Below, one piece after another: positions 11,954 through 30,101 of a stretch of 64,000 nucleotides of DNA; position 1 is the stretch's first letter; each line of letters begins with the position of its first letter. Under the pieces are notes generated by a model. That model did no database searches. It was not told the DNA's origin and saw nothing but the letters and a program-made list of their open reading frames with translations. Made by a program: the position numbers and the translations under genes. Source of the stretch: Escherichia phage TH09; sequence record MT446387.1, one strand, 5' to 3'.

Positions 11954-12181
11954 ATGGCTAAAGTTGATATTGACATTGTTGATTTTGAATATATTGAAGA
12001 GATTATTCGTAATCGTTATCCTGAACTTAGTATCACAAGCGTACAAGATTCTAAGTTTTGGAGTATTCAAATCGTTATTGAAGGTCCTCTTGAAGACCTC
12101 ACCCGCTTTATGGCTAATGAATATTGTGATGGCATGGATTCTGAAGACGCAGAATTTTACATGGGATTGATTGAACAATAA
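11954..12181 (+). CDS. Hypothetical protein (75 aa)
   Basis: ATG with SD agagga; acidic small protein; followed by hairpin AGGGGCU-cuauca-AGCCCCU at 12187-12207. Confidence 0.6.
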
Positions 12182-12227
12182 TTATCAAGGGGCTCTATCA
12201 AGCCCCTATCAAAATGAGGAAACCGTA

Positions 12228-12608
12228 ATGTATATCGGCAAAAAGTATGAGCTTGTTCCAAGACTTATTGATACATTTATTAATTATAGCCCACGTTCTA
12301 ATTCATCAATCGTTAAAGCTATTCGAGATAATGGCGGATGGTTTGAAGTTAAAGAAGTTTCCGTCGCTAATGGATATAAAGCAGTAAAACACATTGAATG
12401 CGCAAATGGAAAGCATTTTTACCTTAAAGATAGACTTTTAGAAATTTGCGAAGATGAATTTCATTGTTTTCGTGAGTATAAAGAACCGACTTCTGAAGAA
12501 GATGAAGTCAAAGACAAGGTTTCTGGCGTAACAAAAATTCACTGCATTGTTGACGAAAACAATGTAGATGAAATCATTGAACTTTTGCGAAAAACTTTTA
12601 AGGCCTAA
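12228..12608 (+). CDS. Hypothetical protein (126 aa)
   Basis: ATG at 12228 with SD gagga (track start 12171 is TTG). Confidence 0.55.
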   Translation: MYIGKKYELVPRLIDTFINYSPRSNSSIVKAIRDNGGWFEVKEVSVANGYKAVKHIECANGKHFYLKDRLLEICEDEFHCFREYKEPTSEEDEVKDKVSGVTKIHCIVDENNVDEIIELLRKTFKA

Positions 12609-12609
12609 T

Positions 12610-12870
12610 ATGACTAAAGATGATTTCCTGGATGCGGTAGAAAAAGCTAGTGAGAAATTTGAAGTGATGGGTGTACGGGTCCACAAAGACAGAAATTACG
12701 GGCTCGATATTCAAACGTATTCGTTATGGCTTGTGGGTGAACACAGTCTTGTAACCAGTTTAGTTATGGGTGTCGATACCTATCCTCTATTGGTTAAGTT
12801 CAGAAGTATGGAAAAGGCTACTAAAGAAATGATTAAGCTTGGTAAGTGGCTCGATAAAATTCAAAAATAA
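12610..12870 (+). CDS. Hypothetical protein (86 aa)
   Basis: ATG overlapping upstream stop (taATAtg); track start 12568 lies inside the previous ORF. Confidence 0.5.
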   Translation: MTKDDFLDAVEKASEKFEVMGVRVHKDRNYGLDIQTYSLWLVGEHSLVTSLVMGVDTYPLLVKFRSMEKATKEMIKLGKWLDKIQK

Positions 12871-12872
12871 TT

Positions 12873-12933
12873 GTTTACAACAGGGTAGTAGTGTGATACT
12901 ATTACCCTATCAACTACTGAGGAGAATAAAATG
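12873..12933 (+). promoter_or_regulatory. Early promoter cassette with inverted repeat
   Basis: TTGTTTAC -35; 10-bp inverted repeat 12883-12892/12898-12907 whose right arm carries the -10 TACTAT; leader ends GAGGAGAATAAAATG. Confidence 0.55.
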
Positions 12934-13173
12934 AGATTACAACGCCAAAGCATCAAAGATTCAGAAGTTAGAGGTAAATGGTATTTTAATATCATCGGTA
13001 AAGATTCTGAACTTGTTGAAAAAGCTGAACATCTTTTGCGTGATATGGGATGGGAAGATGAATGTGATAGATGCCCTCTTTATGAGGATGGAGAAAGCGC
13101 AGGATTCTGGATTTACCATTCTGACGTCGAGCAGTTTAAAGCTGATTGGAAAATTGTGAAAAAGTCTATTTGA
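12931..13173 (+). CDS. Hypothetical protein (80 aa)
   Basis: ORF track; ATG with SD gaggag. Confidence 0.6.
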   Translation: MRLQRQSIKDSEVRGKWYFNIIGKDSELVEKAEHLLRDMGWEDECDRCPLYEDGESAGFWIYHSDVEQFKADWKIVKKSI

Positions 13174-13183
13174 GGAAAATATT

Positions 13184-13543
13184 ATGTCTGACATTCATGT
13201 AGCTGGAATTGCTCGAGTAAGTATTCGTTGCCAACTTAAAACTGCGCCTGGGACGGCTTATATTAATTTATCACACGACCTATGTTCTAGTGAAAGACCA
13301 TTAACTGGTGTAATTACGTTTTACGCTGGAGTTGGCGGAAACGAATTTATTGTAGGCGAATTTGTTGGCTGTAAATTAAAAGTTCAGAAAAATGTGTTAG
13401 AACTTTTTAGCGATCTTTATGGTGATAGTGATGAAGTTTTTGATGAAATCGCGCAAGCAGTTAACAGAGGAATGGTAATTTTAGTTAAAATGATTAAAGA
13501 TAGCGGATTTGCTTCTGGCCCCTTTCAGTGGGAGGTAATATGA
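13184..13543 (+). CDS. Hypothetical protein (119 aa)
   Basis: ORF track; ATG with SD gagga. Confidence 0.6.
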   Translation: MSDIHVAGIARVSIRCQLKTAPGTAYINLSHDLCSSERPLTGVITFYAGVGGNEFIVGEFVGCKLKVQKNVLELFSDLYGDSDEVFDEIAQAVNRGMVILVKMIKDSGFASGPFQWEVI

Positions 13544-13785
13544 TTTTTGTATTTGAATTTATGAATGATGACTTCGATTATGCAATTTTTAATGCATTGT
13601 ATAATCCTGATTTAAATGAATTTAATGAAATGTTTTCTGATGCTTTGAGTATGTCAGAAGAATACTGTGGAGCAAGTCAACGTGTTTGTGTGACAGTCTT
13701 TGAAAACAAAGAAAAGACCTATGAAGAAATGTTCTTTGATGCTAATAAAGCCACTGAATGGTTTCTTGAAAGGGGTTTTGCGTAA
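13540..13785 (+). CDS. Hypothetical protein (81 aa)
   Basis: ATG 13540 with SD ggagg (track start 13528 is GTG); overlaps neighbours. Confidence 0.55.
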
Positions 13786-28147: not shown

Positions 28148-28155
28148 AGAATAAA

Positions 28156-28488
28156 ATGAAAACGATTAATCTGAACGCTGCAGTTAAAACTAAATGCTTC
28201 AATGGTAAATATGATGAAACTATGTGGTTCTTAATGGCAGTTGAAGGTGATATCATTGAAGTAGAAACAGCAGAAGGTATGGGAACAGATTTCACCTTTA
28301 CAATTCAAGTTCATAATTTCTTTACTGGTTGGATTTATGAATTGAATACAGTAATCGTTGGAAAAATTGAACAAAATGAATTGGGTGAATGGTATTATGT
28401 TACAGCTCGCCAACGTGCCGAACGCTTAATTGAGAAGATGAAAAAAGTTGGTAAACTTGACATGCAGCACTGGAAAGTAGTAAAATAA
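28156..28488 (+). CDS. Hypothetical protein (110 aa)
   Basis: ORF track; strong SD. Confidence 0.6.
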   Translation: MKTINLNAAVKTKCFNGKYDETMWFLMAVEGDIIEVETAEGMGTDFTFTIQVHNFFTGWIYELNTVIVGKIEQNELGEWYYVTARQRAERLIEKMKKVGKLDMQHWKVVK

Positions 28489-28490
28489 TT

Positions 28491-28530
28491 GTTTACTTTG
28501 GTACAGGATATGATATTATATACCTGTACC
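28491..28530 (+). promoter_or_regulatory. Early promoter cassette with inverted repeat
   Basis: GTTTAC -35; inverted repeat GGTACAGG(28500-07)/CCTGTACC(28523-30) with -10 TATTAT in the loop; leader ends AGGAGAATAAAAATG. Confidence 0.55.
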
Positions 28531-28556
28531 GCAATTAAACATCTAGGAGAATAAAA

Positions 28557-28922
28557 ATGAACTACATCAACTTTGAACGTAAATATGTTTCTAACGGTAT
28601 TGCAGGTTCTATTGATACTATCTGCCTTTGGAAACATCAAAATGGATCAGTATGCGAAATTGAACAGTATATGACTCCTAACTACGTTTATATACGATTT
28701 GAAAATGGCATTACGGTTTCAATCACGAAAGAAGGTTCTTCTTTTAAAATCGCATTAGATGATGATTTCCGTCAACGTGATTTAGGGACTCATCCTTGCT
28801 GGAATGGCGTTAATCGTAAGCTTCTGGTTAAAACTTGGATTCGTCATATTCTGAGTAATAGAGCTAAACCTGAGCATCTTGAAGCGATCTTTGATGTAGT
28901 TCTTAACGAATTTGATATTTAA
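28557..28922 (+). CDS. Hypothetical protein (121 aa)
   Basis: ORF track; strong SD. Confidence 0.6.
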   Translation: MNYINFERKYVSNGIAGSIDTICLWKHQNGSVCEIEQYMTPNYVYIRFENGITVSITKEGSSFKIALDDDFRQRDLGTHPCWNGVNRKLLVKTWIRHILSNRAKPEHLEAIFDVVLNEFDI

Positions 28923-28962
28923 AATAAAACAGGGGCTTCGGCCCCTTACTGAGGAAAATACT

Positions 28963-29250
28963 ATGTTTATGACTACTTATTTTGATAGCCGCAAAAATTT
29001 CTGTGAAGTGGTTTTCTCTAAGGCGCCTAAAGACCTTCCTGCTCATTTGCAACCTACCAGTGAATCGATTAAAAACTACGTTAATGTAGTCTGCCCTTTA
29101 GAATTCCGTACTGTAAATGGGCGCGATACTTTAGCTATCACTAAACTCAATCGTGAAATTGACATTGACCCTTCAATTGCGCGTGAAATTAACATTTCTG
29201 ATATTGGCGGCGGTAATGTTAAATCGCACGGTTTTCAGATGAGGTTCTAA
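28963..29250 (+). CDS. Hypothetical protein (95 aa)
   Basis: ATG 28963 with SD gagga (track start 28912 is TTG); preceded by hairpin GGGGC-uucg-GCCCC at 28933-28946. Confidence 0.55.
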   Translation: MFMTTYFDSRKNFCEVVFSKAPKDLPAHLQPTSESIKNYVNVVCPLEFRTVNGRDTLAITKLNREIDIDPSIAREINISDIGGGNVKSHGFQMRF

Positions 29251-29447
29251 TGAAATTCTTTTTAGGTCAAACTGTTGAATTAAAGGGAGTTGGTATACCT
29301 GGATTAATTTCTAAGGTTCTACCTCCATTTAAATGGAGTGGTATTCAAATAAAAGAGGCTTATATTGTTTCCTGGGTAGATGGAAATGAAGACCTTCGTA
29401 TGGGTGATGAATTATCTCCTATTTACGGATTAAAGGAATTAGTATGA
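29250..29447 (+). CDS. Hypothetical protein (65 aa)
   Basis: ORF track. Confidence 0.5.
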   Translation: MKFFLGQTVELKGVGIPGLISKVLPPFKWSGIQIKEAYIVSWVDGNEDLRMGDELSPIYGLKELV

Positions 29448-29650
29448 ATATAATTAATAAGATTTTTGGAATTCAGTACATTAAGGTCACATATAAAGTA
29501 ACAGATAAAAATCCATATACTGATGAACATGAAGAACCACAAGTTAAGTCTATTATATTAGAAAAGGACCCTAACTGGCCAGTTGAATTTCGTCTTCCTT
29601 GCTATGGTCATTGGGCTGATGTTGAAATTATAAGCATTGAAAATGTCTGA
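29444..29650 (+). CDS. Hypothetical protein (68 aa)
   Basis: ORF track. Confidence 0.5.
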   Translation: MNIINKIFGIQYIKVTYKVTDKNPYTDEHEEPQVKSIILEKDPNWPVEFRLPCYGHWADVEIISIENV

Positions 29651-30101
29651 GTTAGAGATTAGAAGCAATTTTAGGTGGCCATCATGTGCATTAAGTAATT
29701 TCGCCCAATGGCCTTTCGTCATGGATGGTATTCAATTTGGAGGTCTCGAAGGATTCCTCCAAGGGTGTAAGGTGAAAAATGTTGAACACCAACGTCGTAT
29801 ATTTGGATTATCCGATCTTGCCGCCCAACAAGCTGGAAGGTCTTATGCAAGAGCTCAGGACCGTGGCACGTTGTTCTGGCTTGGAGTTCCGTTTTCAAGA
29901 TATTCACCGGCGTGGAAAGAATTATACACAAATGCATATTTTGAAGCAGCGTTCCAAAACAAGGGCTTTCGCGATGCATTACTAGCCTCGAAAGGAAAAG
30001 TTTTGAAGCACAGCATGGCTAGTGGTCTAACAAAAGATGATACAATACTAACCGAAGCTGAATTTATTGATGTGTTAAACCTATTAAGAGACTCTCTATG
30101 A
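29643..30101 (+). CDS. YbiA/NADAR-like (DUF1768-like) protein (152 aa)
   Basis: ALSNFAQWPF...DG..F...EGFLQGCK, LAAQQAGRS and W...AYFEAAFQNKGFRDALLASKG resemble motifs I recall from E. coli YbiA; ATG 29643 (track start 29637 is TTG). Confidence 0.45.
   Translation: MSELEIRSNFRWPSCALSNFAQWPFVMDGIQFGGLEGFLQGCKVKNVEHQRRIFGLSDLAAQQAGRSYARAQDRGTLFWLGVPFSRYSPAWKELYTNAYFEAAFQNKGFRDALLASKGKVLKHSMASGLTKDDTILTEAEFIDVLNLLRDSL

Follow-up and report, generated by a model that had tools for sequence, protein, structure and literature searches.

The gene 32-to-gene 30 early region of Escherichia phage TH09 is a densely packed, T4-like array of small genes

In an attempt to define the gene content and the likely roles of a dense array of small genes, we analyzed positions 11954-30101 of a 64,000-nt stretch of Escherichia phage TH09 (sequence record MT446387.1; the whole stretch is referred to as the window). 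This region is the gene 32-to-gene 30 early region of a Tequatrovirus, with all genes on the plus strand. It is bordered on the left by gene 32 (10899-11807, plus; Pfam gp32) and on the right by the DNA ligase gene (gene 30; 31200-32663, plus; DNA_ligase_A_M). By megablast of 11954-30101 against 50,697 phage records, 1033 matching records were obtained, with a query coverage of 80% or more in 485 of them. Escherichia phage JLBYU24 was the top match (98.1% DNA identity, 99% of the region covered), and many Tequatroviruses, including AR1, matched at about 95%.

Gene content and coding status

Start codons were refined with the AR1 and T4 orthologues and with ribosome-binding sites (RBSs), and in total 39 plus-strand genes were defined in the region, with 94.2% of the bases being coding. 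Proteins of 58-175 amino acids (aa) are encoded by 32 of the 39, while frd, td, nrdA, nrdB, rnlA, pseT and cd are the seven larger enzyme genes. A first-pass annotation made from the letters alone had described about 35 tightly packed, often overlapping small open reading frames (ORFs) here; the 32 found fall exactly in the size range that it gave, and overlaps occur at 21 of the 42 junctions in the gene 32-to-ligase list (10 of ATGA type and 4 of TAATG type). Its coordinates also proved accurate, with 11954 being the frd.3 start, 12931-13173 frd.1, 15878-16204 nrdA.1, 27869-28045 gene 30.9 and 30101 the stop of gene 30.3.

The window has about 35% G+C, the region holds 118 ORFs of at least 40 aa on both strands, and the AR1 record annotates some antisense ORFs, so that many of the small ORFs could be thought to be chance open frames in AT-rich DNA. 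However, an AR1 orthologue was found in the same order for each of 41 genes (the 39 plus 30.2 and 30.1), and hence for all 32 small genes; 26 of these 32 also have an orthologue in T4, and each of the remaining six is found in hundreds of phages. Each small ORF belongs to a Pfam or PHROG family of its own, and starts with an RBS or with ATGA/TAATG coupling. The ratio of nonsynonymous to synonymous substitution rates (dN/dS, Nei-Gojobori) against AR1 was ≤0.35 for all small ORFs except nrdA.1, and 230 synonymous and 179 nonsynonymous differences from AR1 were counted when the 25 ORFs of unassigned function were pooled. Because of the AR1 orthologues, the families and the low dN/dS, the small ORFs are regarded as real genes, and since conservation and dN/dS already refute chance open frames for the plus-strand set, that explanation keeps practically no probability. 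When the 41 proteins were compared all against all, the marginal match between Cd.1 and Cd.3 was the single similarity observed. Two further ORFs lie across annotated genes: an antisense ORF of 133 aa (26469-26870, minus) inside 31.2/31.1, which is the counterpart of the AR1-annotated ar1_221, and an out-of-frame 68-aa ORF (29779-29985, plus) within 30.3, which resembles T4 30.3′.

Known functions, drawn from the T4 record, Pfam and PHROGs, are assigned to 7 of the 32 small genes, namely denA, alc, pseT.3, pseT.2, gene 31, rIII and 30.3. Two of them do not fit the first-pass description of ORFs without recognisable catalytic motifs: denA (19717-20127, plus; T4 record, AR1 and family search) encodes endonuclease II, a GIY-YIG nuclease of host DNA degradation, and 30.3 encodes a NADAR enzyme. 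The host transcription inhibitor gene alc (21366-21872, plus; T4 record and family search) is followed by pseT.3 (21863-22216, plus) and pseT.2 (22213-22512, plus), which are adjacent with a 4-nt overlap. PseT.3 is the i-spanin (phrog_739, Rz-like spanin, E 2e-37; T4 annotation in RefSeq) and has an N-terminal transmembrane segment, TTAGLLLIVIALGGTSLIL, and PseT.2 is the o-spanin lipoprotein (phrog_812, E 4e-43; lipobox LVGC); by these sequence features the pair qualifies as a predicted two-component spanin. Gene 31 (26964-27299, plus; T4 record and family search) encodes the GroES-like co-chaperonin and rIII (27426-27674, plus; T4 record and AR1/T4 orthology) the lysis-inhibition accessory protein.

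The larger enzymes identified by AR1/T4 orthology are dihydrofolate reductase (frd, 13785-14366, plus), thymidylate synthase from an intron-less td (14780-15640, plus), and the large and small subunits of ribonucleotide reductase (nrdA, 16195-18459, plus; nrdB, intron-less, 18511-19689, plus). RNA ligase 1 (rnlA, 20180-21304, plus) was assigned through the T4 record, AR1 and family search, polynucleotide kinase/phosphatase (pseT, 23053-23961, plus) through the T4 record and family search, and dCMP deaminase (cd, 25781-26362, plus) through the T4 record and AR1. According to notes in the T4 record, PseT and RnlA together repair tRNA in prr hosts.

The product of 30.3 (29643-30101, plus) is AdfN, a NADAR DNA ADP-ribosylglycohydrolase (Pfam Phage_30_3, PF08010, E 4.8e-68). 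AdfN strips DarT1-made ADP-ribose from DNA, by which T-even phages are resistant to DarTG1, and the RB69 allele is inactive through a 15-residue truncation in which the C-terminal helix is lost (PMC11825919). Independently, T4 transposon sequencing (HIDEN-SEQ) found adfN to be essential only in the presence of DarTG1. The TH09 protein is 96.7% identical to T4 AdfN over 152/152 residues with no notable difference found; it is full length, E36 and K43 are present, and the C-terminal helix is intact. Judged from its sequence, TH09 30.3 is thus the AdfN orthologue, predicted to counter DarTG1 as in the activity experiments on the T4 protein.

Early promoter motifs, terminators and PeSL-like cassettes

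A generic sigma-70 scan was uninformative, as it returned 76 sites against 76.5 expected from shuffled sequence, and it was replaced by a T4-specific scan for GTTTAC[A/T], about 17 nt, TG and TAnnAT. This identified six plus-strand sites, all of them intergenic and 28-44 nt 5′ of a start codon. These candidate early promoters are located at 11881-11910 (GTTTACA-N17-TACTAT with TG; 44 nt 5′ of frd.3), 12873-12902 (beginning 2 nt past the preceding stop and ending 29 nt 5′ of frd.1), 21308-21337 (GTTTACA-N17-TATAGT with TG; 29 nt 5′ of alc), 24632-24661, 28099-28128 (28 nt 5′ of 30.8) and 28491-28519 (GTTTACT-N16-TATTAT with TG; 5′ of 30.7), all on the plus strand. The strict pattern GTTTACW-N14-TG-N-TANNAT had four matches in the 64-kb window, where 0.01 would be expected, a count reached by no shuffle; all four are plus-strand matches that lie between genes of the early region, with 21308 and 28491 as near-variants. 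The first-pass statement that each run of small ORFs is fed by its own early promoter therefore stands at the level of sequence motifs, with the six putative promoters at the run heads. From motif and T4 comparison, the 24632 promoter is the orthologue of T4 Pe133295. Hardly a base differs between 24632-24691, which takes in the promoter, its leader and the RBS, and the T4 sequence preceding cd.2, where the T4 record annotates Pe133295. Further plus-strand matches of the T4 early type were observed outside the region at 8051, 8579 and 37055, the last having the form of the alc promoter (GTTTACA-N17-TATAGT with TG).

Two strong intrinsic terminators were found on the plus strand, one after gene 32 (11830-11848; 7-bp GC stem and T-run) and one at which 30.9 ends (28049-28070; 9-bp stem and T-run). 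Gene 31 is preceded by a MotA-box middle-promoter-like site (26907-26933, plus; AATGCTTTA-N12-TATTAT) and rIII by a late-promoter motif (27300-27307, plus; TATAAATA). The Rfam search gave no match anywhere in the 64-kb window, and folding of the 194-nt rIII-30.9 gap was no better than that of shuffles (z = -1.07).

These sites were compared with the PeSL (promoter-early stem-loop) shuffling cassettes of T4-like phages (PMC2839356, PMC4122927), whose promoter consensus in the T4/PST pair is TTTACW-N17-TAYWAT (PMC4122927). The early promoters of TH09 fit this consensus and adjoin indels relative to T4. The full architecture of stem-loop, promoter, RBS and start is present at 11830/11881 and at 28049/28099, whereas 12873, 21308, 24632 and 28491 have the promoter part alone, with no separate stem-loop detected. 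In these last four cases the preceding stop is followed after 2-3 nt by the GTTTAC -35 element, so the promoter cassette abuts the upstream ORF without a spacer. We infer that recombination has occurred at these PeSL sites.

Comparison with T4 and AR1 and the individual small genes

T4 carries a hyperplastic region of the same kind between genes 32 and 30 (about 127.2-146.8 kb), and the 41 TH09 proteins were compared by tblastn with T4 positions 125716-154416. Gene order and strand are the same, and T4 orthologues were found for 35 of the 41 genes (33 of the 39 within 11954-30101). The identities are 85-100% over the best aligned piece, with the alignments of td and nrdB covering the first T4 exon only, and frd.2 is the outlier with 66%. 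The early-promoter type, including Pe133295, and the known gene functions are common to both phages. Missing from the TH09 region are mobE, nrdB.1 and the group I introns that td and nrdB have in T4, together with I-TevI/I-TevIII: td and nrdB run uninterrupted, and in place of mobE and nrdB.1, which lie between nrdA and nrdB in T4, there is the gap 18460-18510. Compared with AR1, the divergent alleles are frd.2 (65-67%) and the AR1_230-like ORF (81-86%), followed by frd.3, td, cd.5 and pseT (88-91%).

Six TH09 ORFs, all of which AR1 carries too, have no match in the syntenic T4 stretch. These are 12610-12870, 13184-13543, 13540-13785, 14387-14734, 22736-23056 and 24692-25219, present in 348, 429, 443, 554, 703 and 302 of the 50,697 phage records, respectively, against the 1033 that match the region, a patchy distribution by which gene content varies between close relatives. 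The AR1_247-like ORF (12610-12870, plus; 86 aa; phrog_4423) has a NYGLD motif and belongs to a tiny phage-only family of 13 clusters among 1.84 billion representatives; it also occurs in the unrelated phAPEC8-like phages, 50-kb Klebsiella phages and Pantoea phages. The sole long match to it, P0099, was rejected as a tandem-repeat artefact. The AR1_245-like ORF (13184-13543, plus; 119 aa; DUF7247) diverges fast, with less than 80% identity in most copies, and its predicted model, a six-strand beta sheet with two helices (pLDDT 72, medium confidence), gave no fold assignment. It overlaps by 4 nt the acidic AR1_244-like ORF (13540-13785, plus; 81 aa; phrog_3183). The metagenomic protein P0090 (196 aa, a single contig) is the DUF7247 ORF fused to this 81-aa ORF (window positions 13184-13785), which may hint that the two are functionally linked, unless the fusion is a frameshift artefact.

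The AR1_242-like ORF (14387-14734, plus; 115 aa; phrog_1928) lies between frd and td, and T4-like phages of Klebsiella have it at the same position with about 30% identity. The AR1_230-like ORF (22736-23056, plus; 106 aa; phrog_2364) is ATGA-coupled on both sides and varies from 39% to 100% identity across its records. The AR1_225-like ORF (24692-25219, plus; 175 aa) is inserted exactly at the cd.2 start and was found in Tequatrovirus-like phages only, with at least 90% identity in nearly all records.

Such a distribution could mean that the six ORFs are selfish or neutral cargo without benefit, brought in by PeSL-mediated or homing-endonuclease-associated recombination. Their patchiness, the presence of the AR1_247-like ORF in unrelated phages, the putative homing endonucleases annotated under or beside the same sites in other phages and the insertion precisely at a promoter/RBS cassette would all agree with this. 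Nevertheless, dN/dS against AR1 is 0.00-0.28 for the six, which indicates that the proteins are under purifying selection, and no endonuclease motif or match was found in any of them. Moreover, one such neighbor, in Bas45 (PaulHMueller), is not a nuclease: at locus positions 1501-1758 it derives from the 175-aa ORF by a deletion that keeps the frame and joins residues 1-13 to 104-175, and its record label “putative homing endonuclease” looks like a mis-annotation. Cargo without benefit thus seems a poor explanation, to which we give little weight against conditionally useful accessory genes.

The deletion in Bas45 takes out exactly the part of the 175-aa protein that resembles Frd.2. GoF and MotB.1 together with Frd.2 form an LSm-like fold family of Tevenvirinae, and T4 frd.2 amber mutants are viable and plate normally (PMC12152347). 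The 175-aa ORF matched the Frd.2 family phrog_622 with E 2.1e-6 over residues 5-108 and the goF family phrog_2980 with E 7.6e-4; profile comparison with Frd.2 by hhalign gave E 1.3e-4 over 100 columns at a probability of 54%, with shallow profiles, and pairwise BLASTP showed no similarity. Based on these profile matches, its N-terminal part of about 100 aa is probably homologous to Frd.2/GoF, which would make the ORF a further paralogue of the family, from whose known members it differs by a C-terminal domain of its own.

The frd.2 gene itself (12228-12608, plus; 126 aa; Pfam FRD2, E 6e-33) follows frd.3 (11954-12181, plus; 75 aa, acidic; Pfam Phage_FRD3, E 8e-40; 100% identical to T4). The TH09 frd.2 allele is about 65-67% identical to T4 and AR1 (dS 0.76, dN 0.26) while the flanking genes are 88-100% identical, which looks like a mosaic allele replacement. 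In frd.1 (12931-13173, plus; 80 aa; DUF5417, Pfam E 2e-33), the first-pass annotation had noted a CxRC signal. The motif is C45-x-x-C48-P, and the CxxC is invariant in T4, TH09 and Kanagawavirus Entb_45. A classical zinc finger, with four ligands per chain, was considered and rejected because the Tequatrovirus proteins have these two cysteines only; a redox motif or an inter-subunit site is possible. In this Kanagawavirus (Entb_45), a homologue of the DUF7247 ORF comes next after that of frd.1, as in TH09.

The CxC...CH cluster reported in the first pass at 15878-16204 was borne out. This ORF, nrdA.1 (plus; 108 aa), is a DUF4326 protein (PF14216, 78.7 bits against a cut-off of 25), the family also being found in 72 NrdA.1 homologues except the two weakest. 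In an alignment of 37 sequences with 44-83% identity, C77, C79, C84 and H85, and also C11, are invariant, and the AlphaFold2 model is confident (pLDDT 88). Seven changes separate nrdA.1 from its AR1 counterpart (one synonymous, six nonsynonymous), a number too small for judging dN/dS. Residues 1-10 are poorly conserved with low pLDDT, and a length shorter by 7-10 residues is common among the homologues, so the true start may be further downstream. The gene overlaps nrdA.2 (15661-15924, plus; 87 aa; DUF5496; 100% identical to T4) by 47 nt (15878-15924) in another frame, as it does in T4.

Foldseek searches against the BFVD viral models returned DUF4326 fold matches in phages as well as in archaeal and giant viruses, with some of the copies fused to DUF2493 and one lying inside a Marseillevirus “NADAR domain with protein tyrosine phosphatase”. 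Domain fusions of DUF4326 have also been reported, together with the proposal that its fold would be rhodanese-phosphatase-like and that, as an enzyme, it would act on ADP-ribose phosphates (PMC9503650). Because of the fusions, including that in the NADAR-named Marseillevirus protein, a link of NrdA.1 to ADP-ribose is plausible.

The remaining small genes, all on the plus strand, lie in the second half of the region. Downstream of pseT.2 is pseT.1 (22509-22739; 76 aa; phrog_2347), which is 100% identical to T4 over 74/76 residues. The cd series comprises cd.5 (23931-24158; 75 aa; Pfam T4_Y13H), the acidic cd.4 (24151-24351; 66 aa; phrog_2360), cd.3 (24354-24629; 91 aa; DUF7355), cd.2 (25213-25449; 78 aa; DUF7320) and cd.1 (25446-25784; 112 aa; phrog_2063). 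Residues 26-62 of Cd.3 align weakly with residues 25-61 of Cd.1 (32% identity; phmmer E 0.0013 in the 41-protein set), and from this resemblance the two may be old paralogues. Upstream of gene 31 are the basic 31.2 (26362-26598; 78 aa; isoelectric point (pI) 9.7) and 31.1 (26599-26907; 102 aa), which has the WYL_2 Sm-like SH3 beta-barrel (Pfam E 7e-21). The very basic character noted in the first pass at 27869-28045 was confirmed for gp30.9 (58 aa, pI 11.4, 19 Lys+Arg), which is 100% identical to T4. It is followed by 30.8 (28156-28488; 110 aa; Pfam Phage_30_8), 30.7 (28557-28922; 121 aa; Pfam Phage_T4_Gp30_7), 30.6 (28963-29250; 95 aa; phrog_2153), 30.5 (29250-29447; 65 aa; phrog_1690) and 30.4 (29444-29650; 68 aa; phrog_2042).

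Just past 30101, 30.2 (30098-30934, plus; 278 aa) is ATGA-coupled to 30.3 (adfN). It has an N-terminal DxDGV motif (MKPTILTDIDGV), which we take to be HAD motif I, and its matches to 5′(3′)-deoxyribonucleotidase and HAD_PNKP are sub-threshold only. It is followed by 30.1 (30934-31203, plus; 89 aa; DUF3045). Sequence searches of the PDB with NrdA.1, 30.2, 30.3 and 31.1 reached E values of about 0.7-1 only, NCBIfam returned nothing, and a permissive Pfam search (E up to 5) of ten ORFs gave noise only. Text searches of the literature gave only passing mentions of frd.1/frd.3, nrdA.1/nrdA.2, pseT.1 and gp30.6-30.9, and none of the DUF numbers.

Beyond the region, the ligase gene is followed by the tandem ORFs 32898-34994 (698 aa) and 34998-37055 (685 aa), at whose position the AR1 annotation has alt, the gene for an RNA polymerase ADP-ribosyltransferase, twice and in full length. 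The T4 locus differs in having one alt together with the duplication remnants alt.-1/alt.-2. The helix-turn-helix-like ORF 49721-49936, which the first-pass annotation had counted among the candidates of the region, lies outside it, between hoc and what is presumably rnlB; its match to sigma-70 region 4 is sub-threshold only (E 0.01, 15 bits against a cut-off of 184). This ORF and the next (49923-50201) have hoc (48213-49631) on one side and, on the other, an ORF at 50211. The latter is presumably RNA ligase 2, and by T4 gene order we take 49721-49936 to be T4 24.3.

Roles of the small genes and candidate factors

Taken together, we consider it very probable that 11954-30101 is the gene 32-gene 30 pre-replicative block of a T4-like coliphage with conditionally useful accessory ORFs. 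In this model, host sigma-70 RNA polymerase would start at about six strong T4-type early promoters, from which long polycistronic, translationally coupled runs would be read from one strand. The runs would supply enzymes of deoxynucleoside triphosphate (dNTP) synthesis (Frd, Td, NrdAB and Cd), host shutoff (Alc and DenA), RNA repair that undoes anticodon-nuclease damage (PseT and RnlA), DarTG1 counter-defence (AdfN) and the lysis and chaperone genes (spanins, rIII and gp31), together with the 25 small accessory proteins. The latter would be dispensable in the laboratory and conditionally useful; early in infection, their targets would be host or defence components, to be bound or modified, or else phage RNA, to which they would bind. 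Whole ORFs would be gained, lost and swapped exactly at gene boundaries, reusing the resident promoter/RBS cassettes in a PeSL-like manner.

The first-pass annotation had expected host-takeover and anti-defence functions in such an array. Because Alc, DenA, PseT, RnlA and AdfN are present, the region does contain takeover and counter-defence functions, whereas the spanins, gp31 and rIII belong to neither class; a conditional or anti-defence role is what we infer for the other 25 ORFs. Most of the T4 orthologues are uncharacterised, and are thus not well-characterised housekeeping genes throughout. The viability of frd.2 amber mutants and the finding that adfN is non-essential without DarTG1 support the dispensability of accessory genes.

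Several observations weigh against a set of fast-changing, conditionally useful genes. Strong conservation, with 91-100% identity to T4, is seen in most of the unassigned ORFs, and divergent ORFs are limited to frd.2, the DUF7247 ORF, the AR1_230-like ORF and a few others, so that conserved, core-like accessory roles fit better than a fast arms-race turnover. In a CRISPRi-ART screen of T4, frd.2 was the only fitness gene of unknown function, its knock-down cutting T4 fitness on a plain laboratory host, which may mean that the role of at least one “accessory” gene is a general one. In addition, Pfam, PHROGs, NCBIfam, PDB sequence searches and two structure predictions yielded no decisive function for the 25 small ORFs.

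The same CRISPRi-ART result and the 91-100% T4 identity of most ORFs would also fit if the small ORFs were mainly housekeeping helpers, that is, assembly or regulatory subunits of the dNTP synthetase complex or chaperones of early mRNAs. The small ORFs lie interspersed among frd, td, nrdAB and cd, in runs that would be transcribed together with these genes, and the LSm-like folds, in Frd.2 and probably in the 175-aa ORF, are linked to RNA functions. Yet plating is normal for frd.2 amber mutants, the array also contains adfN, which is purely a counter-defence gene, and the presence or absence of six ORFs among near-identical phages is unexpected of obligate subunits. We therefore regard housekeeping helpers as an unlikely account of most of the small ORFs, and keep the accessory block as the preferred one.

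More tentatively, it is conceivable, though we would not expect it, that at least one of the uncharacterised ORFs is a new counter-defence or host-manipulation factor and, separately, that the 175-aa ORF is a fourth, unnamed GoF/MotB.1/Frd.2 paralogue acting on early mRNAs. The best candidates for such a factor would be NrdA.1, which might act on ADP-ribose-derived substrates alongside AdfN and the Alt ADP-ribosyltransferases; the co-located trio of Frd.1 with its CxxC, the DUF7247 protein and the AR1_244-like protein; and the horizontally mobile 86-aa ORF at 12610-12870.

Hyperplastic early regions have long been described in the T4 genome literature. The feature studied here, a hyperplastic early region with PeSL cassettes in which every ORF has named T-even orthologues, is thus already known, and no new kind of element is added. 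What is added, incrementally, is that the LSm-like family probably has a fourth paralogue, that NrdA.1 has an invariant Cys4-His cluster, and that an ORF is inserted precisely at a promoter/RBS cassette that is conserved. For decades, T4's small early ORFs have been a reservoir of unknown function, from which counter-defence enzymes have lately been shown: AdfN in this same array, and AdfM, Acb1, Acb2 and Sequestin elsewhere in T4, the Sequestin sponge Y16O lying, as judged from the UniProt naming, outside the region. What TH09 provides is a verified gene map of one natural variant with its differences from T4 flagged, and its value is that of a prioritised screen list in which NrdA.1, the Frd.1/DUF7247 cluster, the Frd.2-like 175-aa ORF and the basic gp30.9 are testable candidates.

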